60,477 bases of DNA from an uncultured virus (IMG/VR IMGVR_UViG_3300049830_000172) (lineage: Duplodnaviria > Heunggongvirae > Uroviricota > Caudoviricetes). This document shows positions 1 to 59,187 of the stretch, piece by piece (the stretch's first letter is position 1; the number at the start of each line of letters is the position of its first letter). Position numbers and translations under genes: made by a program. Where the stretch lies: the IMG/VR virus record IMGVR_UViG_3300049830_000172, one strand, 5' to 3'. The notes beneath the pieces were generated by a model, which ran no database searches, was not told where the DNA came from, and was given only the letters and a program-made list of their open reading frames with translations.

Positions 1-202
1 GAACCACAAGTCCAGCCAAACCTTCAACTGCGTAGATTCCATAGACGAACAATCGACCGATGATTGTTGGGGTTCCAGATGAGTCGTTGGATAGGAACGG
101 GTCTACCCATTTGATGGTCGATGCAACGATAGCCGTGAGGATTGTTGCGAGTCCGATGATTGCGAGGCTTCCAACTGTTCTGTTGATTGCTTGATTGTTC
201 AC
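1..202 (-). CDS. Partial membrane protein (runs off the window)
   Basis: GTG directly after the promoter motif at 203-240; hydrophobic frame MNNQAINRTVGSLAIIGLATILTAIVAS... open to position 1. Confidence 0.6.
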   Translation of the reverse strand, partial: MNNQAINRTVGSLAIIGLATILTAIVASTIKWVDPFLSNDSSGTPTIIGRLFVYGIYAVEGLAGLVV

Positions 203-1053
203 TCTTATATACTCCTATGGGTGAAAATGTTGAGGAATTTTATGAGAAGTAAGCGTATTCTACGCGGGCGGTGGTTACAGTGTGCCAGCCCATAGTAATG
301 AAAATTGGGTAATCGTATCCAATGACTTCCTCATTGATTTTACCATCATGTCCGCAGTACATACCATCGAGGGCAGTGGCAACGTACTTACTTATTTTAG
401 CAGCTTCATCTAACCATTGTTGCAACGGGACATTAGTTCCGATTGCGTTTAATTGTTTGTTCAGACTGTTGAGCAGACTTTTCTTTGTCTGTTTTTTCGG
501 TGCGTCCATGATTATATACTCAGAAGAACACATTATTTGAGGAAATTCTCTTGGTGAAGTCAAAGTCTTTATGAGAATGAACTAATTCAATTTCAGATGT
601 CAGTAAAGGGCAAACTTTGTGACAACCATATATTGCTTTATATTCTCCATCTATTGCAAGTACAAAAAGCGAAGCATAATTTTCCTCGTTTTTGTAATAG
701 AATCCATTGGCAAGTAGGAATTCTCCGTAGGTTTTATCTTTTGTCCAAGTTTTATCTTTTGCGGAATTGTTAAACTCTTCCAAGTCAATGAATGGAGGAT
801 TGTGATGATTTATGAAATCTGATTCAAAGATTTCTCTGAGATTTTTTCTCCATCCAGCGGTTAAATTGTCGCTTGGTGAAATGTTAAATGCTTTGAGTCT
901 TTCAACCATTTCCGAAGTATTGTCTTCGCCAATACTATTCATGATGGATGTAATTTCTTGAGAATCTGTGATTAAGGCAAACTCATCACTCAATTCATTA
1001 ACTTGCATGATTATATACTCACATGAATAAAGAAGTTGAGGAATTTCCTGGCG

Positions 1054-1080
1054 CGTGCCCCCTTATTTCACCAAGCACTA
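1054..1080 (+). repeat. 29-bp dispersed element, copy 1
   Basis: CGTGCCCCCTTATTTCACCAAGCACTA. Confidence 0.85.
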
Positions 1081-1088
1081 AAAAAATT

Positions 1089-2095: not shown

Positions 2096-3261
2096 AATTT
2101 TATACCTATGCCAGCGCGAGATTTGAGGAAAAGTGTTCGAAGCCACAGAAACCATTTGCCCCAACGACTGCGGTTTCTGTATTAATGACTGTATTGAGAC
2201 ACGAGCCACATTCATCGCCAAACATTGAATCCCAACATCCAGTTCCGCAAGCGAAAAGGTAGCCAGCATATTCGTGGGTTGTTCCGCGAACACCAATGGA
2301 TGGAACTTCAATTCCTGTAATAGTCATCAAGTCTTCGATGTCGCACCAAGGAATGTTATGCACTCCGCAGATTGGACATTTTGATTCTGGAGTGAGGATT
2401 GCTTCAACTGTTGAAACCATGATTTTATACTCAGATGGATTATTAATTTGAGGAATTAATCGTTTGGATTTGGTCGCGCATAAGTGACAAAAACCATCGA
2501 GTGATTACCTTGACGATGCTCTAAAGAAACAACCTTCCATTGACATCTATCGCGAAACACATGAAATGAAACAATTTCATCACCTGGTTGTGGACAATTA
2601 TCAAATTTTGCGTGAAACATATGACTTGCTCCGCCGCCTTTTTCAAGAAACCACACATTGTATGTCTTTCCGAATAGCCAAGTTAGATTCATGTTTTAAT
2701 ACTCGGATGGATTATTAATTTGAGGAAAAACGTTGTTTAAGTAAACAAGTCGAGTCAACATTAAACCAAGTAATGGTATTACATGGTTCACAGACACCTT
2801 GGTAATTTCCGCCACAACCATCATACGCTGACTTTTTGGTTTTGGTTAGAACATTACCGCACTTGTAGCAAAGTGCGCTTTCTGGTTTATCATAGACAGG
2901 CCAACGTGAATGACGCTCTAATTCATTTCTTGAGGCAATCGTTCTAAGTGGTGTTCCGTCACCGTATGTGTCTTTCATAATTTTATACTCACCTGAGTTA
3001 ATTCTTTGAGGAAACTTTCTTGACCTTAGACACTGTAATATGTCCCTTAAACTTTGATTCGTTGATAATTTTGCGAATCTGAGTAAAAGTTTTACCAGCC
3101 AGCGAAGCCTTGACTTGATTGTGAAATGTTTTCGTCGGTTTGAATCCTTCTTTCACATTGATGACGGTAATGAACATATCGTTGTGGATTGGCAGCAATA
3201 AGCTTTTGTGTTCCATGATTATTTACGCTGACACCACTAGATTTTGAGGAATTTGTCGCCG

Positions 3262-3290
3262 CGTGCCGCCTTATTTTACCAAGTGCTATT
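3262..3290 (+). repeat. 29-bp dispersed element, copy 2
   Basis: CGTGCCGCCTTATTTTACCAAGTGCTATT. Confidence 0.9.
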
Positions 3291-3305
3291 TGGAGTTTCG
3301 GACAC

Positions 3306-3339: not shown

Positions 3340-4301
3340 CTTATTCCGATATTTACCGATTCGACGTATTTTTGCCCCCGTTGAACATAATATCTGTAAT
3401 GTTCTGATAACCGCTGAGTTGTGCGAGTTGTCGCTTACCTCTCAGGTTATTGGTCTTTTCACGTCGAGGAGAGTCTTGCTCTCTATTGTTTCGGATGGAC
3501 TTGTCTCGTGCCATGATTATATACTCTTTTGGTTTTGTCGTTTGAGGAATTTTGCTTAGATGTTTAACATTCTTCGCTTTCTGCTTTGCAGGATATATTC
3601 CTCAATTATCCCGTACCAGTCGCAGGCTTGCCGTCTCTCTTCTTCTTCCATAGCCTCAAATTTAGCCCATTCCTTATAATAGGCTTCGCGCTCACGGTTG
3701 AGCCATTCTTCTTCGAGGTGTCCGAATTCTTCATCGACAGTCAATTCCTTTGGTGCGCGAGGTGTAATACCAGTGTCAGGCAACCCAGCAGATTGAGCGA
3801 AAAGAGTGCCGATGGCAAAAATTTCGCCTGTTACTGCGTTCGTGATAGGAATATCTTCGCAACGTCCGCAGAATTCAGCCCAAAGCTCTCCACCATTCAG
3901 AACTAGAATCTTAGTTCCGCCCAGAGGTCTTCGAGTGTCGCAAAAACTACAATGGTCAGCCATGATTTTATATCCGTGTGATTCGAAAATTTGAGGAATT
4001 TACAACGACTGAATAATCATGTTCGCATCTAACTGCATTTCGTGCAGTTCATGTTGAAATGAAATTCGCATTGCTCCAAGTTTGTCAGTTTCGCGAACTC
4101 GAATTATTTCGAGGTCAGCATCATTTGCTCCATCGCAAGCCAAGGTAGCAGATGCTACTTTTTCGATTTGAGTGTTGAGTTTGATTTCTTTATCATTTAT
4201 TTCGTTTTCGAAAATGGAATCAAAGAACTCGGCTAGATAGTTGGCGTTAACCATAGTAATTTACGTTCACACTATTAGATTTTGAGGAATTTTGGGTCGC
4301 G

Positions 4302-4330
4302 GGTGCCGCCTTATTTTACCAAGTCTTATT
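4302..4330 (+). repeat. 29-bp dispersed element, copy 3 (between divergent promoters)
   Basis: GGTGCCGCCTTATTTTACCAAGTCTTATT. Confidence 0.9.
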
Positions 4331-4378: not shown

Positions 4379-5293
4379 ATGTCCACTACGGCATCGAACT
4401 ACGAAAGAATCACCGACTCAATCATTGAAGCAATGGAAAAAGGCGAAGTTGTATGGCAGAAGCCATGGAAATCCATCAAGCCATGTAATGCTATCACTGG
4501 TAAGGCGTATCGCGGTATCAATCCTTGGCTCCTCGCGCTCAATGGTGAAAAATACACTGACCATCGTTGGCTAACCTACAATCAGGCGAAGGAACTCGGC
4601 GGTAACGTCAAAAAAGGCGAGAAATCTACCATGATTGTATTCTTTTCACCTGTCCCTAAGAAAAACAAGGATACAGGCGAAGTAAACGGTACTTTTTGGC
4701 TCTTGAAGTCTTACATCGTTTTCAACGTCGAACAATGCGAAAATTTGGTCAAGTTGGCTCCGCTGGATACTTTGGTTAATGTCAATCAAGAAAAAGACCC
4801 TAACATTGTTGCAGAGGAAATTTGGAATAACTATCTCGGAAAGCCAAGTTTAGAAACAGGCGACGTTGCTTGCTACCTCCCTTCACAGGATAAAATCCTT
4901 ATGCCACGACGCGAAACTTTCAAAAGTAACGCTTTTTTCTACGCGATATTGTTTCATGAATCAGGACATAGTACAGGCGCAAAAAATCGTTTGAATCGCC
5001 CAGGTGTTGCAGAGTTTGATAACTATGGTAGCGAAAAGTATTCAAAAGAGGAACTTATTGCGGAATTTACCTCAGCTTTTCTTTGCGCTGAGGCTGGTTT
5101 AGAGGCTCCGACGCGAGATAACTCAGTGGCTTATCTTCAAAACTGGATTCAAGCGTTAAAAGACGATAAAACGCTCATTGTAAAAGCGGCAACAGCGGCC
5201 CAAAAAGCGGCTGAACATATTCTGGGTACGTCGGCAAAAAATGATGAACCTGAGCCAAGTACCAGCGACGAGAAAGAGTTGGTAAACGCTTAA
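4379..5293 (+). CDS. ardC: ArdC-family ssDNA-binding antirestriction protein (DUF1738 plus zincin-like domain)
   Basis: YERITDSIIEAMEKG-W-KPW, YRGIN, RWLTYNQAKELGG-VKKGEK, VFNVEQ, HESGHSTG, YSKEELIAE motifs. Confidence 0.92.
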   Translation: MSTTASNYERITDSIIEAMEKGEVVWQKPWKSIKPCNAITGKAYRGINPWLLALNGEKYTDHRWLTYNQAKELGGNVKKGEKSTMIVFFSPVPKKNKDTGEVNGTFWLLKSYIVFNVEQCENLVKLAPLDTLVNVNQEKDPNIVAEEIWNNYLGKPSLETGDVACYLPSQDKILMPRRETFKSNAFFYAILFHESGHSTGAKNRLNRPGVAEFDNYGSEKYSKEELIAEFTSAFLCAEAGLEAPTRDNSVAYLQNWIQALKDDKTLIVKAATAAQKAAEHILGTSAKNDEPEPSTSDEKELVNA

Positions 5294-6084: not shown

Positions 6085-7056
6085 TCTTCGTATCGCCCAC
6101 GCCTAGCGTTTCGCTCTTCGCTTCGCGTATCAGCTCTATTATAGTCTACACTTCTCTTATGCGCTTGACTACCAAGGAATTGCTGCTGCTTACCAGTCCC
6201 GCCCGTGAAAAGGGTTGGGTTGGATTCCTTGAGTTTTCTTCCTGTTTTCGACCATTTCGTTTTTCGCATGATAGATATTATATCCAAAAAGTTCAGCGAT
6301 GTGAGGAAAATTATTCATTATCCGTCATTAAGACGGATAATGTTTGGTAATGTTGAGGCTTGCACCAGGCTCGCGCATATGCAATAGGACTTCACCAGTG
6401 AGGGCGTCTACCATTTCATGCGGGATTCTGAATGGTGCTTCTTCGTGAGCGTTAATATATCGCTCAACGGCGTTAACAGCTTCCCCTATACCTGCGACAC
6501 TATGAGTGGCGATGGGAAAATTCATCCAAGAATCGAAATTTGGAGCACAGTCGTCTTCTGCACCTTTTGGCATCTTATTAACAAAAATCTGAGCAAAAAC
6601 GTGGGAAAGAGGTCGGTCTACTCCAAGACAAATGTTAAAGTTCTTGGTTCGCATTGTATGTCGTGACATGATTTTATACTCACACCAGAAGAAACTTTGA
6701 GGAATTTATGATTTCAACAAAAGCTTTTGGATTCGCTCTAGTTGTTCAAGTTCGTCTGTTTTTTCAATCATAAGTGATGTGATTCTATACCAAGCCGCGT
6801 CTAACGCTTCTTTTTTGGTTGCGTGCCAGTCATGATTGAGATGACGCGCAAGTGCCCAATGATGGCAGTTTGTACCAAAATCACGACAGCCAAAATGCAA
6901 AGTCACCGATGAACCTATTTCACCAACACGTTGTAATTGACATTCATGAACACCTTGCGGAGTATGGTTGATGTCTTCAACAACGAGCCAAACAGTCGGC
7001 GCGTCTTTAACATCGCCACTAGCAATTTGCGTGGCGTAGTATTTGCTTAAATCCAT
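6081..7056 (-). other. Three small hypothetical CDSs
   Basis: 6081-6269 (basic), 6328-6669, 6706-7056, each with the promoter motif. Confidence 0.75.
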
Positions 7057-7101
7057 ATTTATATACTCACACACTTGCAAATCTTGAGGATAATCCTGGG
7101 G

Positions 7102-7130
7102 CGTGCCGCCTTATTTTACCAAGCGCTATT
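7102..7130 (+). repeat. 29-bp dispersed element, copy 5
   Basis: CGTGCCGCCTTATTTTACCAAGCGCTATT. Confidence 0.9.
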
Positions 7131-7151
7131 TTTTCCTCAAATTTGAAACGC

Positions 7152-8876: not shown

Positions 8877-8940
8877 ATTAGATGAAGTAACTTCGTGCTA
8901 TCTTTATATCTGTATCACTACAGATATTGAGGAAAAATTA

Positions 8941-9075
8941 CTACGCGCCGTAAATCATTACGCAAGCAATCTTCTTGTCTTTGCTTGCCAATTCATTCTG
9001 ACCAAATGAAATGCCATTGACTGGGTAGATGTAGTTGCTGCTGCTGCCGTCTCTAAAGTATATTACTGCGAACAT
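8941..9075 (-). CDS. 44-aa microprotein
   Basis: MFAVIYFRDGSSSNYIYPVNG..., ATG directly after the promoter motif. Confidence 0.65.
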   Translation of the reverse strand: MFAVIYFRDGSSSNYIYPVNGISFGQNELASKDKKIACVMIYGA

Positions 9076-9120
9076 GTTTATATATCCATCTATGCAAAAT
9101 TCTTGAGGAAACATTGTCAC

Positions 9121-9145
9121 AAAAAAGACCGCATTTCTGCGGTCT
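9121..9145 (-). terminator. Intrinsic terminator after the tRNA-like RNA
   Basis: AGACCGCA-GAAA-TGCGGTCT-TTTTT. Confidence 0.85.
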
Positions 9146-9151
9146 AATTCT

Positions 9152-9275
9152 CACTAATGTACAGGACTCGAACCCGATGTATCCCCACAAGCACCAAGCC
9201 AGCTCCATTTACTAGATAGAACTTTCTGAATCGAACGAGATTCGGGGACACGCTTTACCATTAAGCTATACAATG
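9152..9275 (-). ncRNA. tRNA-like RNA with a 57-nt insert replacing the anticodon loop
   Basis: D-arm TAGCTTAATGGTAAAGC, stem TGTCCCC/GGGGATA, T-arm CGGG-TTCGAGT-CCTG; own promoter (9305-9340) and terminator. Confidence 0.6.
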
Positions 9276-9338
9276 TTTATTGAAAGGGTAGTAATCCTCT
9301 CACACTTATATATCGTTTGGATAAGAAAGATTGAGGAA

Positions 9339-10654
9339 TTAATGAACTGCGACTCTGCTAGAAGCTTCAACCTCTAAGAGTCGAAGAGTGTAACGCCATC
9401 TATCAACCTCGATTTGTGCAACTGCCAATTCGCCCTGAGCTTTAGTCAACTGAAGTTCAAAGGTTTCCACCGCTGCGCGTTCTGCTACTGTCATAGAGTC
9501 GATGGCTGCCGAACGAGAAGCCTCGTTACCACCAAGTTCTTTTTGACCATCGGGGTGCTTTGAGGTATCGTTGTATTCGTTTAGAATACTGTTTTTAGCT
9601 TCAACTAGATTCTTCTTCGATTCTGCAAGTTTCTGGTTAAGCACGTTGAGGGAAGTGACGTTTGCCGCTTTTTGGTTAAGCGCTCCGTTGATACCATTAA
9701 GAGTATCTACCGATGATGGAAGTTGATTCATGGTAAAAGTAGTGTACCACGTTTTTTCGCAGTACACTACTTTTTTTCAATTAGACACCGACAGTGGTTC
9801 GGAGACACATTTTTACCATACTCGCACTAGCTTTATATCGCTTGCCGTCTTTGACTCTTTCGAGTTCCATTGGGTTGGCGGGTCGGTTGGTATTGATGCC
9901 AACAATTTTCAAAGTGTCGCGACTAGACACGAATTCCTTACCAAAATCGCTTGGCTCAAGCCCGTATGAACTAGCGAATCGCTCGAAATTGAGTTTTGCA
10001 CTTGAAGTTGCTTCCTCGTCGCTTACTGTGCTAGCTAGCTTTAGTTCGACTTTGAAAGAATGGTTATGACTCGAAAAACTTCCGAGAGCCGATGATACGG
10101 TGATGCCATGTTTAGCGCAAACATCTTTGATAGCTGTGTCGATTTCTCCACGAATGATTCTTAAACTGGATGCAGTGAACTTGTCCATATTTATATACGA
10201 AACAAGTTCACCCTTGTGAGGAAAATTACATTTCCTCTAAATCCAACTTGAATCTGTGTTTGGGTTTCAGACTCATAAAGTAGTCATAAGGTGTCATGTC
10301 CTCAACAATGATGATGCCACTTTTTCCGTCTAGGAAGTTTATAACTTCATATGGAATCTCTTGCAACTTGAAAACAATCTTTCGATTCTTAATCAAGTTG
10401 GGTGCTATTTTTCCGATTTGATATTCCATATCCCTTAAGTCCATCATCGCAAGGAGTGACGATGGGAACACGCAAAGAGCTTTAAAACCCTTTGCATTGA
10501 TGAAATAGCCGAGGTAGTGAGTGTCTGAGTTGTATTTGTTTGTGTTCATTTTGATTTGTTGTAGTGTTTTTTCACTTACAAAACATCTATCGTGCAACAT
10601 CGTGAGATTTCGCATGATGATTTTGAAAATACTTTCCTCAAGAAAATTGCTCAC
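9339..10654 (-). other. Three hypothetical CDSs
   Basis: 9339-9731 (coiled-coil), 9781-10188, 10226-10654 (start uncertain). Confidence 0.7.
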
Positions 10655-14233: not shown

Positions 14234-14698
14234 TCAGTTGTTTGAGGAATTTCCAAACAAATCTGGCGGAAGTTCCATTGGCCAAGTTCCTTCTTGAAAG
14301 TATGTTGCCATTGCCCAAAGAATATGTCCTACCCTTCCATTTCCGTCATTGAAAGGATGAATTTCCTCGAACTCTTTATAAAGCTCAATCGGTGTGAGCC
14401 TATTTTCATTGTAAGCATCACACCAAGTTTCCAAAGCTCTATAGATATTATTTGGATTCATTGCAAAAGTCATATTAGCAAAATGAGCTGGTGTTGTGCG
14501 AAATCCTAAGTTTAGTGTTGGTTCAACTACACCACCAAGTGCCAGAATATCGTAAATGTCTATGTGCTTATATGCGCCTTTTTGCACAGCTTCAAGCATC
14601 ATTGTATAAGCCATGGCGAAGTTAACAAAATCTTCAGGGCTAACAGCATTTTGAATCTGACATTGCTTAACAATTAGTTCTGTGTGAGTCACTGACAT
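14234..14698 (-). CDS. Fic/Doc domain protein
   Basis: FEEIHPFNDGNGRVGH matches the Fic motif; start moved to MSVTHTE. Confidence 0.88.
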   Translation of the reverse strand: MSVTHTELIVKQCQIQNAVSPEDFVNFAMAYTMMLEAVQKGAYKHIDIYDILALGGVVEPTLNLGFRTTPAHFANMTFAMNPNNIYRALETWCDAYNENRLTPIELYKEFEEIHPFNDGNGRVGHILWAMATYFQEGTWPMELPPDLFGNSSNN

Positions 14699-14702
14699 AA
14701 TA

Positions 14703-17700
14703 TCACTCGATTTCTTTCGTTGAGGAATTCGCAATAAGTTCGAGGGCTTTTGCGCGAAGTTTGTCAGGCATATAGTCATTTGGATTTTCAGCGCAACAAA
14801 TATTCATCCACATAGATGATTGTCCAAAGAGTCGCCCATCGAGTGAATACCTTGAACGCGGGTCGGTGATATGTTCGCCAGCATCCATGATATACCATCT
14901 GAGACAATCAATTTCCGGGTCGCCTTTACAAACGTAAGTGCTTTTGATTTTCTTACGTTCTTCGGCAGCTTTTTTCCGTAGCTCGGCGGATTCTTTTTCG
15001 CGTTTACTTAACATAGCAATCCACCTTTGGAGCGACGATTGTAGTCCCACCCTCGAAATTTGGTAGATAGATAAGCAAGTTATTTTTCCAAACTCTCTTT
15101 ACTTCTCCATCTTCACAGATGCGAACTTCCCACTCTTCATTGTCTGTGTCTACATGTACTTTGCTTCCTACTTCAAACTTGTCCATGTTTAATTACACGC
15201 TCGATTTTCTTCGTTGAGGAATTTTAGAATCTGTGTATTGGAAAGTTTGGAAATTCTTTTCTTCCTTGTGTGAATGTTTCCATAAGTTTCTTCATGACTG
15301 CATCTGGTTCATATCCTTCTACATATTCTTCATCGTAGTAAGAACCTGGATTAGCGTGAAAACGGTGAAGATGTTTTCGCGCTTCTTCGTTAGTTTTGAA
15401 TGGGCCGGTGGCTTGGGCGTGTTCTCTCCAATCCCATGAATTCTGTGGTGCGTGTATATCTTCCAACACATACCACCATTCATTTGGTTTGACTTCGATG
15501 AATGCGCATTCGCTGTTTGTACTCATGATTATCTACGCGGATTTAATTTCACGTTGAGGATTATTTGATTTCCCATTCTGTGATTTCAGTCGATAGAATC
15601 TTCGCTGGTGATTCAGATTCACTGGCTTTAAATTCATAATCCATGTTTTCGAGAACTTCGGTCACGTCTTGTCCGTCTTGAACTTCAATTTTCAAGCGAG
15701 TGACTACATCAACGTTAATGATTTGTACCATTAAAATCCATACCACTCGATAAATTCTTCGAGTGTAGTTTCTCCGTTCCATGGTTCTGGAATAAGTCCG
15801 ACACTTCTTAGTATCCTATCTTGCGACGTGTGAATCTTTGCTGATTCAATCAATCGAGCAGCTCCAGCTTTTTGTTCTTCTGCTGAATCGTATTGAAATG
15901 GCTCAGTAGAGATAAGGGAAGAAAGGACGACTATGTATTGTACCATGAATACTTACACAGAGAGGAATTTGATTTGAGGAATTAATACCAAGCTAATGCC
16001 AGTTCTTCCCAGAATGCGTCAATTCGATAATCGAAGTAATAGCAGTCGCCTCGTTCGCCCGAGAATGAGTGATAGATTGCTGGATTAGCTTGGTGAAGTT
16101 CATTCATCAACCATTGACCATAACGAATCATTGGCCAGGTGCGTCGGTATTCCTCGTAGTTGTGAGGTTGGTGTGTCGATTGAAAGTCTTGAAAGTTCAT
16201 AGTTTTTCCTGTGCTTCAAGCCACTCAGCGCATTTCTTGGCGCAAGCTTCTGCGCTTCGAATCCTATCTCTCATTTCCTTGATTGGAAGTGTGTCAGCTC
16301 CTTTGAGCGTATCCACAACTTGAAGTCTGATACAAGCCGCGATTTCTTTTGAAGTGGCTTTTCGATATTGGTTCATTGAGTATCTACGCGCTCCTAATTT
16401 AGCCTTGAGGATTATCCCAGGACATTTCTTGTTCACCAGAATGTCCGATACATCGGAACTTATATCCTTTTTCTTCAAGAAAAGCTTTAATATCATCTGG
16501 AACGGCTGTAAACTGTGCATAAAACTTACCGTCTTTTTCTGCATCTCGTATGGCATTATATGCCACTGTAAGAAGTCTATCAAAACGTTGTTGTTCTTTT
16601 GTTCGCTTAGCTCGAATGACAGCTTTAGTTGCCTTTCTAGCAGTTGATGCATCTGGGAAATGTTGTTCGTTCATATTAAACCACCTCATGTTTGAGTGTA
16701 TCTCTTGCGATTCGGTCAATGAAGCATCGCATCCACCACGATTTCTTTTGTGCTTTTTCGACAGCTTGTTTGGTTTCACTTGGAAAACCATATCCAAGTG
16801 ACTGGATTAAATTAGGGATTGATTCGTTTGGGACTTCGACATGAGTGGTAACGTCTCTTCCCATGAAATCCTTTCCACGAACGCATATTCTCAATCCGCA
16901 TCCACCTAGAGCGCCAAAACGCTCCAGCTCTACTTCGCTGTTATCTCGATTGGTACGTTTGAACAATGATGTTGACATGATTATATACGCTTTCTTAATT
17001 TGAACTTGAGGAAAGTAGCCAAATGAACTCGAACCCTGCATATTGAATGAAGTAACATGGCTCATTATTGAACATGCTTTTGAACACTCCAGCTTCAGGG
17101 TCTGACGAAAGAAAGTCCTTTAGACTCTCTTCATCTTCAAGAACTGGTGAGGTGTCACAAGTGGCAAGAAACTCCTTATGGCTAATTGGCGATTTGGCAG
17201 CAATCATATCTTTCAACATGAATCCGCCTTTATCGCCAAAGTTTTTCCACACTGTATTACATTGAGCGTAGAATTTAACCATGATTACTTACCCCCTGAT
17301 AAGTTCGCCTTGAGGAATGTTGACGATGTTGTCTTCTTGCTTTCGTTCACAGAAGTTATTCATCAATCCCGTGAAGAGTTCTTCGAGTACACCATTGGGA
17401 AGAATAGCAGTCATATCGACATGCTGTCCAGTTCGTCGGTCTCCGCCTTCGATTCGGATTGCAAGGGCTTTTCCTTCACGAGTGTCAACGACACTGAATC
17501 CGATTATATCACCCTCTGGATATTCCACGCCGAAAAAGTTTTGAGTAGCCATGATTACTTATCATGGCATAGAAAATTCTTGAGGATTATTTGCCATTAT
17601 GATTTACCTGGTTGAGTTGGTTTATCGTAGTTTGTCCATGGGCCTGTTCCTCCATTTTTCTTCCAGATAACTGCGCCTTCTTCAGCGGGAATAATTGAGT

Positions 17701-20583: not shown

Positions 20584-21126
20584 TTACTCACCGAGTGAAG
20601 CTAATTGAGGAATTTTACTCCACTTGGCTCGATATCTAAAGATACGAGTTTTAACAGTACCAAGAGGAATATCTAACTCAGTTGCGATTTCTTCATAAGT
20701 ATAGTCAAGCATTAACATCTCCACTAACTTTCTTTCATCATCACTCAGCGTTTTGTCGAATTCTTCAAACATGACATATATATTTGTATTATCATGTGGA
20801 TTCCCCCAACGTAGATTTGAGTTTAGAAACCCTTCTGCCATTTCACAAAAAAGAACTTCTTTACTTCTGCGCTGCAATGTTCTTAAATAATCAATGCACG
20901 TGTTTCTAAACATGACACTGACGTAATTGTAAAATGTCCTTGTGTCAACAGATTTATCAACAAGCTTTAGGTAATATGCTTCAAGGCATACAGTGAATAA
21001 TTCTTCACGCTGTTGTTTTGTTTTTCCCCATTTCCTCACGCTTCCAAGTAACATTTGAAGCGTTTCAACATCCATGTTAGGGTATTTCATATTAAAATGT
21101 TGGGCTTTGGCACCACATGAACACAC
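20584..21126 (-). CDS. ECF/sigma-70-family sigma factor (divergent)
   Basis: Region 2-like FYNYVSVMFRNTCIDYLR; region 4 LSDDERKLVEM...YTYEEIATELDIPLGTVKTRIFR; start may be 21090. Confidence 0.82.
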   Translation of the reverse strand: MCSCGAKAQHFNMKYPNMDVETLQMLLGSVRKWGKTKQQREELFTVCLEAYYLKLVDKSVDTRTFYNYVSVMFRNTCIDYLRTLQRRSKEVLFCEMAEGFLNSNLRWGNPHDNTNIYVMFEEFDKTLSDDERKLVEMLMLDYTYEEIATELDIPLGTVKTRIFRYRAKWSKIPQLASLGE

Positions 21127-26098: not shown

Positions 26099-26257
26099 CT
26101 AGTGGTACCTTAAGGTTGAGGATTTTTCGTCCCTAGAGTCCAGCCCTGATTGTCCATTATTGCACGCTGGACAATACCCGTCGCGTATCCTATCCGTGAT
26201 GCAACTCGTTGAAAAGTTGCATCTAGGACAGTAGAATGTTTCACTTTGTGTTATCAT
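26099..26257 (-). CDS. 52-aa zinc-ribbon protein
   Basis: MITQSETFYCPRCNFS...GYCPACNNG...; start overlaps the vWA gene end. Confidence 0.65.
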   Translation of the reverse strand: MITQSETFYCPRCNFSTSCITDRIRDGYCPACNNGQSGLDSRDEKSSTLRYH

Positions 26258-33149: not shown

Positions 33150-34510
33150 TCAATCGTTCTCTTTCTCAGAAGTAATTCGCCAATGCTCTCCATATAAAGA
33201 GGTGAAGATTTCACCAGCTACTTCAGCAGCGAGCACAGAATTTCGATGAGTTACGGTCTCAGAGTCTTCCACCCATGTTCCGTTGTGTAAAACGGTAGCA
33301 GTAAAAATGTATGTGTTCATATCTAACTACCGTTATACATTGCATCATTGAGGAATTAATCCCACCAAACTCGGAACGTTCTGAAGTGGTCAAATGATTT
33401 TTCTTCATAACCAAGCACCTTTTTAGGATTTTCTTTATCCCAAATCGGGCCCCAGGCTTTAACTTCTTTCATGCCCTTGCGAGGATTGAAGTCATCCTTG
33501 GCATTCTTACCAAACATACACCAATGAAGTTCGTCACATCCTGCGCTTCGCTTTAAATCTTTACCAAGTTCAATAGCTTTTTCCATGAACAGATGACTAC
33601 CGCCATCGCTCATGTAGTATTGCTTCAATGAAAGATAAAGAACTGGACTAGATTCGCGTCCGAAATAACATCCTGAGTGGACATCAATAAAGTCTTTGTG
33701 CTTTTCCAGCACTTTGACGACCTTTGTTGCTTCATATTCGTTGTAGCTATCGACCATGCAAAGCATGTCTAACAGCTCTTCGAAATTCTGAGTGGAAACC
33801 AAGCCCTTCAAATCACGAGTTTCCAAGTGTCGCAATGTACCTCGAACTTCAAAGTCGTAGCAACTACCAAACGGTAATGCCACATTAAGGAGTTTTAGCT
33901 CTCGTGGAGTGAGTTGGGATGCTGGGGTTGTGAGGAGCCTTTGAATGCCCCCTTGTACTTTCTTAAGTCGTTCTTGGGGAGTTAATGTCGCCATGTTTGA
34001 TTACGCTAACTCCACAAAGGTTTGAGGAATTTTATTCCATGTTAGGAATGTTGATTCCAAGAATCAAATGCCCTTCATCTAATACGTCGTTATCATCAGT
34101 GGCTCGAAGAATGATTTGTACAGGATAGTATTCATCCATTTCACCATCGTAGATGGAAATATTGCATCCCTTGTCATCTTTTGTAGCAGCTTGAATCAAT
34201 TCTTTGAGAGTTGGATTCTTCCTGCCGTTTTTTGTCGATTTGCCGTTGCTTACTGTTATTACGCCGTCCATAACAGTTTACGCTTCCGCCACTGGAGCGT
34301 GAGGAATTAAATCCCCAAGCGCTTTTTGATTTCTTGTTGTAGTCCTGGGTTGGAGTTGAGCATCTTCATCACCATGTCCGCCGCTTGAGCAGAAGTCTTA
34401 GCGACTCCCACAAGTTGACCGAACTTGCGATATTTAAACCAGACAAAAAGCCCGATTCCGACAACAGTGAGAACACCGCACACCCATCCAGTAATAAAAG
34501 TTCCTATCAT
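33150..34510 (-). other. Hypothetical CDSs
   Basis: 33150-33320 (56 aa), 33356-33994, 34032-34271, 34307-34510 (1 TM). Confidence 0.72.
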
Positions 34511-34546: not shown

Positions 34547-35617
34547 TTAATCATCGGAATCCTCGGACTTGAACTTAAGGGCTGTGATTTGGTCACAATC
34601 ATGGTCGTCTCGAATTCCACGATATTTAGGTTGGTAAAGACTTCCGCCCTTGTAAGCGTAGAGATAGGTTACATCGACGCAATCACCAACGTTTGGAGTT
34701 GCATGACCATTGATAGTAACGTTGCCTACTGGAATCATTTTTGTTCCATCAAGAATTCCAACTTGGATGCTTGCCTTGTCGTTAATCTTGAGAACTTGAA
34801 CAGTAACGTCACTCCAAAATTTACACTTCAATTGCGAACCCAATTTTGTCGGCCGGCCTGGTGTATAGACAGAATCCTTGAGCTTGAAGACTACGCCCTC
34901 TTTGTGAGCCAGTTCCTTAACAAGTCTGCGCTTTCCAGCTTCGTCTACTTCACATCGGACAAGCACAAGATTGTTTGGACTGCATTTAGCCATGATTCTC
35001 TTTAAGATATTAAACCTATCCAAACAAGTATCATTTCGCAAGTCATCTCCACCGAGTCGAAGAATATCAAAGACGTGGTAGTTGTTACCAATCATTTCAC
35101 CGTCGATGATAGTCCCTCGAAATACTGAGACACCTTGTTCGATTTCTGAAGGAACTCCGCACTTCAAGCCCTTTCGGTTGGAAGTAGTAACTCCGCCGAC
35201 TTCGCTTTCTGCCATGATTCGCTTACCATCGAGCTTTTCTTGTGCAAGATAGCGGTTGTCGGTGATATAGCGTTCCATTTCGCTTTCTTCAATCGGATTG
35301 AGAAGTTGGGGGAAGAGTCCAGTCGAAACTTTGTCGTTTGGTGACACTGAGCTGATACCAGTAGAAACTGCTACGTTTCCATCAGGCTTATAGCCTTTCG
35401 CTTGTTTCTCGTTTATTAATTTTGAATAAATTAATTTAGCTTTATCCAAATCAACAGGAGAGTTTGTCTTAGTGCCAGTTGAAGTTGCATTTCCTCTTTT
35501 TCCATAACTAAAATTCACAACATACAAAGAATCAGATTGTTCCAGAGTAATATTATACTCTTTGTCAGAATTTGAATCTTTGCAAAATAACGAAATACTT
35601 GCAATAATGGATGCCAT
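34547..35617 (-). CDS. WGR-domain ATP-dependent DNA ligase (minimal)
   Basis: N-terminal SDKEY...YGKRG...KQAKGY (WGR-like); EKLDGKR motif I, IDGE, FDIL, EGVVFK, OB-fold YQPKYRGIRDD. Confidence 0.88.
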   Translation of the reverse strand: MASIIASISLFCKDSNSDKEYNITLEQSDSLYVVNFSYGKRGNATSTGTKTNSPVDLDKAKLIYSKLINEKQAKGYKPDGNVAVSTGISSVSPNDKVSTGLFPQLLNPIEESEMERYITDNRYLAQEKLDGKRIMAESEVGGVTTSNRKGLKCGVPSEIEQGVSVFRGTIIDGEMIGNNYHVFDILRLGGDDLRNDTCLDRFNILKRIMAKCSPNNLVLVRCEVDEAGKRRLVKELAHKEGVVFKLKDSVYTPGRPTKLGSQLKCKFWSDVTVQVLKINDKASIQVGILDGTKMIPVGNVTINGHATPNVGDCVDVTYLYAYKGGSLYQPKYRGIRDDHDCDQITALKFKSEDSDD

Positions 35618-35653
35618 ATGACAATATGTTTCGACAATCTGCAATTGAGGAAA

Positions 35654-38768: not shown

Positions 38769-40073
38769 TTATTTGAACTCCACCAAGTAGCGAGGGTTGA
38801 TTTGGGCAGTGTTATAAACCACCATCTCATTGTTGCGAAGCGTCGTATAACCGCCACCACGAGCAAACACTGAATCATATCCAGAAACAGGCAATCGCTC
38901 ATTCAATGATTTTGGTTCATACATCTTGCCCATAGCTACGTCATTCCAAAACATGAACGCGAACTGTTCATAGCCACCACGTTGGCCTGGTGCCGTTCCA
39001 GTAGCGTAGTTTAGAGACTTCGTACTTTGGTCAGAGAAATAAGTGCCGTTGCCCAACAATCTACCAGTACAGTGACCAGCATTCGTTGGAGGAATCATAA
39101 ATCCGCTCTTGAGAAGTGAAAGCAAGTTGCCAATTCGAGTTCCATGCCAAAGTTCCATAACATTACCAATCTTTGCACCATGATTTGCATAAGCATTTGC
39201 CATTTTTGTGATTTCGACAGAATAAATCTTATGAATGTTCAAACTTGACGAACTGTGAATACTTTGTCGAGTAGCATTGAAAGCCTTATTCAATTTGTCA
39301 AACACTTTACCATCGTCACAAAGATGTAACGTGGTCTCAAAGAGTTTCGGAGCCACAGGCGCAGGCGAACTGTCCGTAGGCGCACTCAATACCATCTGCA
39401 AACTACCATCAAGCGAATCCAAGAGGTCATTTTGCTTTTGAACTGAATCAAGCGCAGGGAACAAGTCTCGTGGCTTGACGCGCTGTCTGCCAAAGTCTGA
39501 CGGGATAAGTCGCATATACTGATTGATAGCACTTGCAAAACCATGATTACTCCAATCATTAGTAACAACAAAGTTACCAATCTTACTAAGCCAATCTCGC
39601 GCTTCAAGAATCGCATCGGCTGTCACAATACCTAAAGGAGTCTCAAACAGTCCAGTCACCTTATTAAAGGTCATAGTCGTTTGAGAAGTAATATTGTGAA
39701 TGTTCGCGGCCGCTAGTCGCTCAATGAGAGTAATCGTATCCTTAGAGTTGGAGTTGATTTCGCGCTTTGCGATTTCGACAAGGTTCTGCGATTGAACAAT
39801 TCTGCCTTGACCGCTACCAGGAGCCGAATCAAGAGTACGGATTTCGGTGTATCGTTCGTCGGGGTTGGACTTGTTCTTCTTTTCGCTAATCTTCTTATTG
39901 AAAAAAGATTCACCCATACCAGGGAAAGTTTTTGACTGTGCCTTGCCTTCTTCCGCGACACGTCCCCATTTGGTAATACAATCTGAGTTATCGTGAAGTT
40001 CGATTTCCCAAAACTTGTTGTTGTTTCCAGCGATGTTAGCACAAATTCCGCGCCATTTCTTGATTATTGCCAT
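38769..40073 (-). CDS. Poly(ADP-ribose) polymerase-like (WGR + helical + catalytic)
   Basis: NNKFW...KWGRV (WGR); LWHGT, LGNGTYFSD-STKSLNY, NEMVVYN (H-Y-E triad). Confidence 0.92.
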   Translation of the reverse strand: MAIIKKWRGICANIAGNNNKFWEIELHDNSDCITKWGRVAEEGKAQSKTFPGMGESFFNKKISEKKNKSNPDERYTEIRTLDSAPGSGQGRIVQSQNLVEIAKREINSNSKDTITLIERLAAANIHNITSQTTMTFNKVTGLFETPLGIVTADAILEARDWLSKIGNFVVTNDWSNHGFASAINQYMRLIPSDFGRQRVKPRDLFPALDSVQKQNDLLDSLDGSLQMVLSAPTDSSPAPVAPKLFETTLHLCDDGKVFDKLNKAFNATRQSIHSSSSLNIHKIYSVEITKMANAYANHGAKIGNVMELWHGTRIGNLLSLLKSGFMIPPTNAGHCTGRLLGNGTYFSDQSTKSLNYATGTAPGQRGGYEQFAFMFWNDVAMGKMYEPKSLNERLPVSGYDSVFARGGGYTTLRNNEMVVYNTAQINPRYLVEFK

Positions 40074-44530: not shown

Positions 44531-44620
44531 TGGAGCCCCTGACAGGATTCGAACCTGCGATACTCTTTCGAATTCCAATTTACGAAATTGGCGCAATAGA
44601 CCAGGCTATGCGACAGGGGC
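44531..44620 (-). tRNA. tRNA-Thr(CGU) with long variable arm
   Basis: GCCCCTG/CAGGGGC-T-CCA; CCAAT-TTCGTAA-ATTGG; V-arm AATTCGAAAGAGTATC. Confidence 0.9.
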
Positions 44621-47804: not shown

Positions 47805-47895
47805 TGGTACCCGCGAAGGGAATCGAACCCTAATAAGCCTCTAATCTGGAGGTAGTGAGTTATAAGCCCACCTATGTTCCATACATCACACGGGC
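47805..47895 (-). tRNA. tRNA-Ile(UAU) with long variable arm
   Basis: GCCCGTG/CGCGGGT-A-CCA; GTGGG-CTTATAA-CTCAC; V-arm CCTC-CAGATTA-GAGG. Confidence 0.8.
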
Positions 47896-48438: not shown

Positions 48439-48488
48439 ATCTCTATAGTATACCTGAGCAAATTGTTGAGGAAACTATGGGCCAGCAT

Positions 48489-48509
48489 GGAATCGAACCC
48501 TAATAAGCC
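48489..48509. repeat. 21-bp direct repeat of the tRNA-Ile 3' segment (47819-47839)
   Basis: ggaatcgaaccctaataagcc in both places. Confidence 0.85.
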
Positions 48510-48518
48510 GCTAAAATT

Positions 48519-48614
48519 TGGTACCCGTACTCAGACTCGAACTGAGAACCGCTCCCTAATCTGGGGAATATCTATGTTATAAGCATAGCGCTCTGCCAAT
48601 TGAGCTATACGGGC
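48519..48614 (-). tRNA. tRNA-Ile(UAU) with long variable arm
   Basis: GCCCGTA/TACGGGT-A-CCA; CTATG-CTTATAA-CATAG; V-arm TCCC-CAGATTA-GGGA. Confidence 0.88.
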
Positions 48615-48657: not shown

Positions 48658-49332
48658 ATGACAGAAAAACAAATTCAAATCATTAAAGACCTACAGACTT
48701 TTTCAGTAACTTATAACCGAACACCAACGAAATCAGATTTTTCAACCAAGACGACCATAGTGCGTCATTTTGGGACTTGGAATAATGCTTTACTTGCTGC
48801 GGGTCTATCGCCAAACATTACATTTGGTGAGACGCAAATATTTAATTGTAACAAATGTGGTATTACTATTCGAAGACAAGCCTCACAAATTAAAGGAGAA
48901 GTTTATTGTTCCCGTGCTTGTGCAGTTTCAATAAATAATCAAAAACGAACAACAATCAAATATAGAAGTCGTAAACCAAATAGTTTTTGTTCTTCTTGTA
49001 ATATCCAAATTAAAAGAGACCGCAAATGGTGTCCCGATTGTTCTCCTTTACGGAATGAAAGTATGCCAATATCGGATTTGTTTGATGATAAACGAGCTGC
49101 AAGTAAATATGCTAAAATTCGCCAGCGTGCTCGTTCAAAATATTTAGCAAATAGACCATATGAATGCATTATTTGCAAATACACATTGCATATTGAAGTT
49201 GCGCATATTCATTCAATAGCAAGCTTTCCCAAAGAAACGTTAGTCTCTGTTGTAAATGATTTATCCAATTTAGCTGGTTTATGTAAACGTTGCCATTGGG
49301 AATATGACAACGGATATATTCAACTTCAATAA
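48658..49332 (+). mobile_element. HNH homing endonuclease between tRNA genes
   Basis: N-terminal RTPT...RHFGTWNNALLAAGL repeat; CIIC...EVAHI...NDLSNLAGLCKRCH; stop abuts the tRNA CCA end. Confidence 0.85.
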
Positions 49333-49409: not shown

Positions 49410-49455
49410 ATGAGAGCCGAACCCAGGCCTGCCAAACTCCCTGGAGGTATGCCCA

Positions 49456-50531: not shown

Positions 50532-50688
50532 TTAAATATAAATGTAAATAGGGGAAGATTCAACAGCTATAGGGGCAATATGATGTCTTTCCATCAGTCA
50601 ATGTCTTTACACATCCCGTTTCCCAGATGCATCAGCCAGCACTTTTTAAGGTTACTGGACTAGTCGAAGAGACATTCCTTCCACAATG

Positions 50689-51742: not shown

Positions 51743-51800
51743 TTTAAATATCACTACACTAATCCCGCTCTGAATTATTTGTAAATAGGGAATATCAACG

Positions 51801-52245: not shown

Positions 52246-52288
52246 TTACATTTGGGATTATTCCATCCCAATAGGCGAAGGTAGCATG

Positions 52289-52370
52289 TGGAGCGGGTGA
52301 GGAGAATCGAACTCCATACTACATGTTTGGAAAACACGCGATAAAACCATCTACCATAAGTTTCACCCGC
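52289..52370 (-). tRNA. tRNA-Gly(UCC), 8/4 fold with expanded D region
   Basis: GCGGGTGA/TCACCCGC-T-CCA; CGTGT-TTTCCAA-ACATG; T-arm GGAG-TTCGATT-CTCC. Confidence 0.75.
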
Positions 52371-53263: not shown

Positions 53264-53347
53264 TGGAGCCAGCTAGGGGAATCGAACCCCTGTTCTCTTT
53301 CGAGTCCGCATTACAAGTGCGGCGCAATTCCATTATGCGAAACTGGC
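53264..53347 (-). tRNA. tRNA-Thr(UGU) with long variable arm
   Basis: GCCAGTT/AGCTGGC-T-CCA; CCGCA-CTTGTAA-TGCGG; V-arm CTC-GAAA-GAG. Confidence 0.9.
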
Positions 53348-54493: not shown

Positions 54494-54575
54494 TGGAGCG
54501 GATGACGAGACTCGAACTCGCAATACTTTCGTACCTCGTTGGCAACGAGGCTCCATACCATTAGGATACATCCGC
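54494..54575 (-). tRNA. tRNA-Gly(GCC) with long variable arm
   Basis: GCGGATG/CATCCGC-T-CCA; CCTCG-TTGCCAA-CGAGG; V-arm TAC-GAAA-GTA. Confidence 0.92.
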
Positions 54576-58578: not shown

Positions 58579-59187
58579 TTATTCTGACTTGAAATCAGCT
58601 TGTTGTGCAACGGCAGCAAGTGCCGCACGAGCACGGAACAAACGAACTTTGACAGTATTAATGTTCGTTTTCGTTTGTAGAGCGATGTCATCGTAACTCA
58701 TAGGAATTGAAATTGTTTCATCCAGAGGATTAGAATTTCCATAAGTATTCATAGAGAGAGCAGATGAGTACGTCGGAGATATGTTGGATATCATCCCTCT
58801 GACTTGTCGAGAATTCATCGCCTGCACTTCCTTCAATAAAAATTCAGATTCAATATCAACCTTAGGGTCTGCGAATTCTACTTCGCTGCCGCCATATAAC
58901 CACTCAAGCTCATCGAATGAAGTTGTCTTCGGACGGCGGGCATCAAAGCGCTTCTTATCGAGGAATAAATTCTGCATGATTCTTTTTGCCCACGCACAGA
59001 ATTTATTCTCATCTTGACACTTATCGAGATTCATATAAATTTTAATTGATGTCTCTTGGAATAAATCATCAGCACTATCTTGATTTCGTGTCAGTCGATA
59101 TGCATGCACGCGCAGATTTTTGGTATGAATCCGCATCAAGCGTTCATATGAAGAATCATTAAGCTCGAATTTCTCTGTTGATGTCAT
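58579..59187 (-). CDS. ECF (RpoE-like) sigma factor
   Basis: AYRLTRNQDSADDLFQET, FCAWAKRIMQNLFLD (region 2); MSYDDIA...INTVKVRLFRAR (region 4). Confidence 0.92.
   Translation of the reverse strand: MTSTEKFELNDSSYERLMRIHTKNLRVHAYRLTRNQDSADDLFQETSIKIYMNLDKCQDENKFCAWAKRIMQNLFLDKKRFDARRPKTTSFDELEWLYGGSEVEFADPKVDIESEFLLKEVQAMNSRQVRGMISNISPTYSSALSMNTYGNSNPLDETISIPMSYDDIALQTKTNINTVKVRLFRARAALAAVAQQADFKSE

Follow-up and report, generated by a model that had tools for sequence, protein, structure and literature searches.

The locus and its features

The window analysed here is the whole 60,477-nucleotide (nt) stretch of the uncultured virus record IMGVR_UViG_3300049830_000172 of IMG/VR, which is, judged from its phage-typical PHROG and Pfam matches, part of a phage. 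Our subject is a minus-strand, 122-nt body derived from a transfer RNA (tRNA) at positions 9275..9154, hereafter the element. It is real, tRNA-derived, non-decoding and lineage-specific, and it lies behind a gene-start signal used by the protein genes of this phage, hereafter the cassette. The features of the locus, in the order in which they are read, are the following (ORF, open reading frame; bp, base pairs; aa, amino acids; indel, insertion or deletion).

9339..9767, minus strand: orf142, the upstream gene, coding for a coiled-coil-like protein with no family match; its TAA stop (9341-9339) overlaps the start of the cassette
9304..9340, minus strand: cassette copy of the element, AATTCCTCAA, 17 nt, (A)TATATAAGT; fits the consensus well, with GTG at +34
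9277..9303, minus strand: GTG mini-ORF of 8 codons plus TAA; the TAA ends one base ahead of the body
9154..9275, minus strand: tRNA-derived body, from the Rfam tRNA model, ARAGORN with introns allowed and a shuffle control
9250-9244 / 9186-9180, minus strand: 7-bp stem UGUCCCC/GGGGAUA closing the insert, pair probability 1.0
9243-9187, minus strand: insert of exactly 57 nt, enclosed by the 7-bp stem
9243-9228, minus strand: hairpin 1 of the insert, GAAUC-UCGUUC-GAUUC
9223-9201, minus strand: hairpin 2 of the insert, an 8-bp stem with loop CUAGUAA; the 3' tail after it is single-stranded
9120..9153, minus strand: 8-nt trailer, then an intrinsic terminator (hairpin 9145-9126, T run 9125-9120)
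8941..9112, minus strand: next cassette (TCCTCA at 9109) and a 44-aa ORF from the ATG at 9075; conserved right flank of the indel described below

A tRNA-derived body that does not decode

The acceptor stem of the element (9275-9269/9161-9155) is paired at five of its seven positions. Its strands are CAUUGUA and UACAUUA, with mismatches at C1.A72 and U3.U70. The D arm (9268-9252, UAGCUUAAUGGUAAAGC) is canonical, and its loop reads AAUGGUA. The T arm (9176-9162) carries a canonical loop, UUCGAGU (9172-9166), on a stem of only 4 bp, one of which is a G.U pair. The stack of acceptor and T stems counts 11 bp (7/4), compared with 12 bp (7/5) in a canonical tRNA, and the variable loop has 3 nt. The 3' end reads ...CAUUAG, followed by UGAGAAUU; CCA is not encoded here, and it is encoded in 13 of the 16 other tRNA-type genes of the window.

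These observations bear out the anatomy given in the initial annotation of the locus. Its canonical D-arm and TTCGAGT T-loop are aligned by the Rfam tRNA model at high posterior probability, its 7-bp stem TGTCCCC/GGGGATA enclosing 57 nt (9187-9243) with a hairpin is located on the minus strand, and its imperfect acceptor stem without CCA is found as described, next to a T stem that is moreover short. The combination of a 7-bp acceptor stem and a 5-bp T stem that marks a canonical tRNA is absent. So is a canonical anticodon arm (5-bp stem, 7-nt loop, U33, purine 37); a 7-nt loop, CUUGUGG, appears only after 54 nt are removed by hand. The element is non-decoding: it has no usable anticodon loop, no full acceptor stem, no 5-bp T stem and no CCA.

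The Rfam tRNA model (RF00005) aligns end to end with the element and places 60 nt of it in the anticodon loop. The score of this alignment is 24.5 bits, below the gathering score of 29, and its E-value is 0.011 in 701 nt and 0.97 in the whole window. Both the D arm UAGCUUAAUGGUAAAGC, with G18 and G19, and the T loop GGUUCGAGUCC (UUCRANY) are aligned at posterior probability '*', so that the two sides of the tRNA elbow are present. At default settings ARAGORN does not call the element and finds no transfer-messenger RNA (tmRNA) in the window. With introns allowed and default stringency, it reads the element as tRNA-Thr(UGU) with a 54-nt intron (9245-9192) at position 31/32. When the window is dinucleotide-shuffled 20 times (1.2 Mb in total), the program with introns allowed makes no call, and the tRNA ancestry of the element is therefore real. 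At lowered stringency ARAGORN adds only a spurious 324-nt tmRNA call across coding sequence. The element is derived from a tRNA, with intact D arm and T loop.

Rfam finds no Y RNA or tmRNA family on 8900-9600 at E-values up to 10, so the comparison with tRNA, tmRNA and Y RNA models gives a sub-threshold tRNA match and neither of the other two. The earlier statement was that the element is too short for a tmRNA or a group I intron; Rfam gives no such family at E-values up to 10, and ARAGORN makes no tmRNA call at default settings.

A gene-start cassette ahead of the element

The genome-wide cassette has the consensus aAATTCCTCAAa-N14-g.GTAtAtAAtc-ATG on the minus strand of the window. Its spacing is TCCTCAA, 17 nt, GTA, 7 nt and ATG, with a fixed distance of 34 nt from TCCTCAA to ATG; further examples are found at 3548-3508 and 12605-12565 (both minus). 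The core TCCTCA has 108 copies on the minus strand, compared with 13 on the plus strand. At 88 of the 108 minus-strand sites a start codon at +30..39 opens an ORF of at least 30 codons, and at 67 of the 108 the ATG stands exactly at +34, which makes 67 genes in 60 kilobases (kb). The other 20 sites have no ORF of that length, and several full cassettes are followed by no gene, for example at 26122 and 38365. The same cassette is used in two relatives, L020 and L021. It is absent from five more distant IMG/VR relatives, and in all of IMG/VR a single match is found, which is probably due to chance. Stop codons (TAA) and the CCA ends of tRNAs often abut cassettes, and the cassette may lend itself to the shuffling of modules.

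No cassette precedes the true tRNAs of the phage, and the element is therefore wired like a protein gene. The motif that was initially taken for a promoter of its own is present, but it is one copy of this genome-wide signal. A scan for sigma-70 promoters finds none on the minus strand, and the cassette is a presumed promoter. Two sigma-70-family proteins are encoded in the window (20584-21126 and 58579-59187), one of them of the extracytoplasmic function (ECF) type in its likeness, and the spacing of the cassette would suit a promoter of a phage sigma factor at which RNA starts at or near the start codon. As an expression signal the cassette is unusually clean, and it may be a sign of leaderless mRNAs whose synthesis depends on a phage sigma factor. 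If transcription does start at the start-codon position, the mini-ORF stretch would form a leader of about 28 nt. As noted before, only this 8-codon ORF follows the motif: GTG, seven more codons and TAA on the minus strand.

A full cassette with no start codon is also found at 45126-44900 (minus). It is followed by a GC-rich structured stretch, GACGGGG...CCCUGUC, which encloses a UUCG hairpin. The stretch has no Rfam match at E-values up to 1 and could represent a further non-coding RNA driven by a cassette.

The syntenic site is empty in two relatives

The two closest available relatives, L020 (71% identity) and L021 (65%), came from a single metagenome scan in which the 461-aa protein encoded downstream was the query. 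The gene order orf135-orf142-orf44-orf461-orf124 is retained in both. Homologues of orf142 are 70% identical in L020 and 68% in L021 (tblastn), and those of orf44 are 72% and 65% identical. In both relatives the stop of orf142 is followed by 25-26 nt, the terminator and the cassette of orf44. The alignment brings the terminator, this cassette and the 8-nt trailer before the terminator of the window into correspondence with those of L020 and L021. No tRNA or tRNA-like sequence is found at the syntenic site or elsewhere in the 6-9 kb covered in the two relatives. By this alignment, cassette, leader and body of the element are one clean indel of about 170 nt.

Two conclusions follow from this arrangement. 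The terminator is that of orf142 rather than of the element, because it is kept at the same place in two relatives that have no element. Furthermore, the element did not decay in place, because the relatives have no tRNA at the site. The terminator of the initial annotation thus exists, as a hairpin (9145-9126) with a T run, but it is not the element's own. The description as a stand-alone RNA stands as regards the cassette copy, with its presumed promoter role, and fails as regards the terminator, which is shared with the upstream orf142. The idea of a decaying tRNA agrees with an acceptor and a T stem that have degenerated, with the lack of CCA and with the empty sites of the relatives, but it has to be given up for decay at this site. 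Homologues in the form of ordinary tRNAs, of which this copy would be the disrupted one, are not found in L020 and L021; the homologous loci are empty instead. The locus may serve as a worked example of how the claim of a tRNA scaffold is tested by synteny, in which the empty site means that the element has neither decayed in place nor been conserved. Four freshwater DNA runs, which belong to three studies, have contigs with the element, one of these contigs being 109,815 nt long; the sequence of the element is identical in all of them, with no variants.

Predicted folding of the insert and of the transcript

Energy minimisation of the element gives a three-way junction made of hairpin 1, hairpin 2 and a single-stranded tail. 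The insert alone is no more stable than its shuffles (z -1.18; 24 of 200 shuffles fold as well), and the whole tRNA-like body reaches a folding z of -1.46 against shuffles. Only the closing stem together with the insert stands out, with z -2.55 and 2 of 200 shuffles as good. For the full transcript, prediction favours an alternative fold (-61.0 kcal/mol), in which the leader is paired with the T-arm region, over the cloverleaf (-57.3 kcal/mol), and gives the acceptor and T stems a pair probability of about 0. Pairing of leader and cassette with the body is not beyond chance, as equally good pairing is found in 127 of 500 and in 118 of 500 shuffles. By estimate, a 9-nt inverted repeat that flanks the unit and a 14-nt T-arm-like repeat are also at about chance level.

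A guide, antisense or aptamer role had been suggested for the insert. Neither an antisense target nor a second copy of the insert is found, in that no complementary or similar stretch of at least 13 nt exists in the rest of the masked 60-kb window or in the 26 related loci (L001-L026), which gives the idea of a guide or antisense sequence no support. The aptamer is weakened by the folding of the insert alone, which is no better than that of shuffles.

Several other readings of the insert were tried and rejected. As a chimera of the phage's own tRNAs, the insert shares with them only the T-loop-like 9-mer GTTCGATTC (9236-9228), and 106 of 300 shuffles score at least as high as the whole insert. 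Hairpin 2 has a loop, CUAGUAA, that looks like an anticodon loop, but it sits on a 7-bp stalk beyond the normal stem and is not a real anticodon arm. The tandem UAG UAA in the same loop prompted a tmRNA-like reading, which fails for lack of a G3.U70 pair (U.U here), of CCA and of any ARAGORN or Rfam call.

Insert-bearing tRNA bodies in other phages

Homologues of the element were sought in several collections. Among INPHARED phages, megablast and blastn find none, with one 34-nt chance match at E 0.8. Exact and gapped patterns in IMG/VR give no homologue and no uninterrupted counterpart. By pattern, the GTDB genomes give no uninterrupted ancestor and no 3' half that could be an attachment-site tRNA. 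A covariance model, R1, was built from the single sequence of the element; it finds no homologue in five related IMG/VR records (one a 378-kb phage), seven metagenome loci and one cassette-pattern match.

The architecture of the element is found more widely than its sequence. A loose scaffold pattern (D arm, 62-92 nt, T arm) occurs at no fewer than 115 phage loci of IMG/VR (L027-L141). Among the matches listed, at least 74 have an acceptor stem paired at six or more of seven positions, no nested T loop, and 60-81 nt in place of the anticodon arm, and they form 38 clusters. The acceptor is paired at all seven positions in 73 of these 74, and several of them form conserved families. The largest cluster among the matches listed has 24 members, and the ten distinct sequences that were aligned are nearly invariant. 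In another 21 of the listed matches a nested T-loop motif is present, that is, pieces of tRNA lie within tRNA-like genes. The R1 model scores the listed scaffolds at 12-31 bits, none above the level of a tRNA body, and the four alignments shown match the tRNA body and not the insert. The element fits this class in its insert size and arms; its acceptor, at 5/7, is below those of the 74 listed (all at least 6/7). By these pattern and model comparisons, tRNA bodies with large anticodon-arm inserts are common in phages, and the element, which is unrelated to all of them in sequence, has degenerated further than they have.

For 71 of the 74 listed scaffolds, which are unrelated to the element, ARAGORN with introns allowed also gives an intron reading, mostly at positions 31-33. 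Its intron call on the element therefore carries little weight. We found no published definition of the class in the literature; the only description found is that of "enigmatic introns" of Lak phages, in excerpts of PMC6784885.

A proposed transcribed remnant or chimera

We consider it most plausible, at a probability of about 45%, that the element is a transcribed tRNA-derived remnant or chimera. A piece of a tRNA gene with extra sequence in its anticodon loop would have ended up behind a protein-gene cassette. The lineage-specific module of about 170 nt (cassette, 28-nt leader and 122-nt body) sits between the stop of orf142 and the conserved terminator of that gene, where the cassette would drive it and read-through from orf142 may contribute. 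The element is probably transcribed, and the RNA product would probably be about 185 nt long, end at the shared terminator and have no dedicated function.

This reading is favoured because the features needed for tRNA function are degraded, the insert has no signal of its own, and the genome carries both tRNA debris and empty cassettes. Such debris, 3' halves of tRNAs with a T arm and a partial acceptor strand, one of them ending in CCA, lies between intact tRNAs at about 48470-48518, 52285-52340 and 49410-49440 (minus). In addition, a protein-gene signal followed by GTG and seven more codons looks like a disrupted small gene. A transcribed leftover or tRNA look-alike is more likely than a designed RNA scaffold.

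Several points weigh against this preference. The indel comprises exactly cassette, leader and body, with a good match to the consensus, and so looks like a discrete gene module. The elbow nucleotides of the D loop and T loop are all canonical, and a perfect 7-bp stem closes the insert (z -2.55 with the insert). As indicated by the empty sites of the relatives, the element is not a product of the decay of a resident tRNA. Insert-bearing bodies with perfect acceptors are frequent in IMG/VR (at least 74 listed, in 38 clusters), and the architecture as such seems to be maintained. The identity of the element across the four runs and three studies gives no information on selection. More distant relatives, at 40% identity, have neither orf142 nor orf44 and so provide no outgroup, for which reason gain and loss of the element are indistinguishable.

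Alternative explanations

A functional tRNA mimic is a tentative alternative. The cassette would here produce an L-shaped RNA that binds a factor recognising the body of tRNAs and acts as a decoy, a sponge or a carrier of the insert. With similar reserve, its partner could be a tRNA-targeting defence nuclease, RNase P, or a modification or repair enzyme, by which an RNA with no anticodon loop would not be consumed. The complete cassette at the right spacing, the discrete indel, the intact elbow (D loop AAUGGUA, T loop UUCGAGU) and the perfect closing stem are consistent with such an RNA. The element lies in a region of small cassette-driven accessory genes, with Pfam matches to ArdC-N, Fic/DOC and a MazE-like domain (this one below the Pfam cut-off), and counter-defence genes are found in such places. 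Phage tRNAs have been reported, in excerpts of PMC10264068 and PMC11555353, to counter tRNA-targeting defences, and the many IMG/VR phages in which 60-81 nt replace the anticodon arm of a tRNA body (at least 74 listed) also argue for a mimic. However, the element is a singleton that both close relatives lack. Its acceptor and T stems are weak, with a predicted pairing of about 0 in the full transcript and a stack of 7/4 instead of 7/5. Its insert has neither a structural nor a sequence signal beyond chance, and it shows no sequence homology to the listed scaffold families, which R1 scores at 12-31 bits, the four alignments shown matching the tRNA body and not the insert. The stronger proposal, namely a working, promoter-driven, anticodon-less mimic that is an accessory module of the lineage and one case of a widespread, uncatalogued phage habit (at least 74 genes in 38 clusters), appears unlikely to us.

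The element could also be a cis-acting signal for RNA ends or processing, a tRNA-like fold in the 3' region of orf142 that is cut by RNase P or RNase Z or that stabilises the 3' end. Its position between the stop of orf142 and the terminator of this gene suits the idea, since transcripts that read through must contain it. But in the relatives a stop codon, 25-26 nt and a terminator are enough, the element brings a cassette of its own, and the acceptor/T stack that RNase P measures is imperfect. We regard this as quite improbable.

Still less credit can be given to a real tRNA-Thr(UGU) from which an unconventional intervening sequence of 54 nt (9245-9192) is removed to leave a tRNA of 68 nt. 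It is exactly what ARAGORN reads with introns allowed, with a loop CUUGUGG after removal, and Lak megaphages are reported in excerpts of PMC6784885 to have unexplained tRNA introns, including one in a Thr(TGT). As set out above, the intron call itself carries little weight, being made for 71 of the 74 unrelated scaffolds listed, and position 31/32 is non-canonical. The loop after removal would have G37 G38, whereas the four ordinary Thr tRNAs of the phage have A37 A38. These four start with GC (three with GCC, one with GCA) and end with CCA, unlike the element with its C1.A72 and U3.U70. A group I core takes about 200 nt or more (P1-P9), and a bulge-helix-bulge consists of two 3-nt bulges around a 4-bp helix. 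Rfam gives no group I intron family at E-values up to 10, for which 54 nt would be far too short, and the predicted stem is continuous, with no bulge-helix-bulge by inspection. Furthermore, Pfam finds no tRNA-splicing enzyme among the 71 proteins scanned, and Thr tRNAs with CGU, UGU (two copies) and GGU anticodons are already present among the genes of the window.

Chance resemblance or an assembly artefact can practically be dismissed: the Rfam score is below threshold with E 0.97 on the whole window, but there is no ARAGORN call in 1.2 Mb of shuffled sequence, the consensus strings of D arm and T loop are exact, and the same sequence is found in independent contigs of four runs and three studies, one of these being the 109,815-nt contig.

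Comparison with known systems

The Lak megaphage tRNAs with enigmatic introns, as described in excerpts of PMC6784885 (Devoto et al. 2019), resemble the element in that they are found only with introns allowed, carry an insertion of tens of nt in the anticodon region and have, in those excerpts, no known splicing mechanism. One case there is also a Thr(TGT), whose insert is itself tRNA-like; the insert of the element holds the T-loop-like 9-mer. Compared by description, the Lak inserts lie in otherwise normal tRNAs, are identical across cohorts and have intron-less alleles (excerpts of PMC6784885). The element is unlike them: its body is degenerate, it encodes no CCA, its relatives have no allele of any kind, and a protein-gene cassette precedes it. 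A further likeness is found in the tRNA gene fragments and pseudogenes of prokaryotes, which the excerpts of PMC9897764 describe as partial or non-canonical tRNA-derived sequences that gene finders may mistake for tRNAs. Plain 3'-half fragments occur in the window as well; unlike such fragments, the element has both halves in order, a 7-bp stem around the extra sequence and a cassette-bounded unit. With the listed IMG/VR scaffolds it shares acceptor, D and T arms and a large insert between D arm and T arm; it differs in its 5/7 acceptor, compared with 7/7 in 73 of those 74, and in its 4-bp T stem.

The stable RNAs C and D (species 1 and 2) of phage T4 are likewise small, non-decoding phage RNAs in which some parts are tRNA-like. 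They are co-transcribed and processed with the tRNA cluster. Unlike them, the element stands 35 kb from the tRNA cluster of its own phage and behind a protein-gene cassette. YrlA-type Y RNAs and tmRNA are like the element in that a tRNA-like module is joined to another domain. YrlA ends in a Ro-binding stem and not in an acceptor stem.

Taken by itself, the element makes a weak case, since it is degenerate, exists as one copy and has no conservation behind it. If members of the scaffold class act as tRNA mimics against tRNA-targeting immunity, that class, more than the element, is the place to look.

Other features of the window

Extra hairpins in the variable arm are found in several tRNAs of the phage that belong to kinds in which the variable loop is usually short: Thr CGU, Thr UGU, Gly GCC and two Ile UAU. 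The length of these tRNAs is 82-96 nt. A CGAAAG loop motif is present in the Thr and Gly arms, and CCAGAUUAGRG in those of Ile. All five score 50-59 bits with Rfam.

44531-44620, minus strand: tRNA with extra variable-arm hairpin
47805-47895, minus strand: tRNA with extra variable-arm hairpin
48519-48614, minus strand: tRNA with extra variable-arm hairpin
53264-53347, minus strand: tRNA with extra variable-arm hairpin
54494-54575, minus strand: tRNA with extra variable-arm hairpin

The genes for tRNA-Thr UGU and tRNA-Gly UCC are both preceded by CCCTATTTACA, and their upstream regions end with ATATTTAA (50532-50560 and 51744-51800, minus). The two motifs may be an expression signal of tRNA genes that is distinct from the protein-gene cassette. 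Near the tRNA 3'-half debris, an ORF resembling an HNH homing endonuclease (48658-49332) lies on the opposite strand.

A second repeated intergenic element, of about 45 nt and with the core GCGTGCCGCCTTATTTTACCAAG, adjoins cassettes. It may act as a terminator in both directions or be a small mobile element. A similar core is found in L020 at 3870-3920, in the opposite orientation relative to the genes.

1004-1083 (plus-strand coordinates): repeat with the GCGTGCCGCCTTATTTTACCAAG core
3212-3291 (plus-strand coordinates): repeat with the same core
4250-4329 (plus-strand coordinates): repeat with the same core
7052-7131 (plus-strand coordinates): repeat with the same core
33990-34069 (plus-strand coordinates): fifth listed copy, with no core

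Accessory genes are found at 38769-40073, 34547-35644, 20584-21126, 58579-59187, 4379-5293 and 14234-14779. They include a PARP-like protein with WGR and PARP regulatory domains, an ATP-dependent ligase with a WGR domain, the two sigma-70-family proteins, a Fic/DOC protein and, on the opposite strand, an ArdC-like anti-restriction protein.

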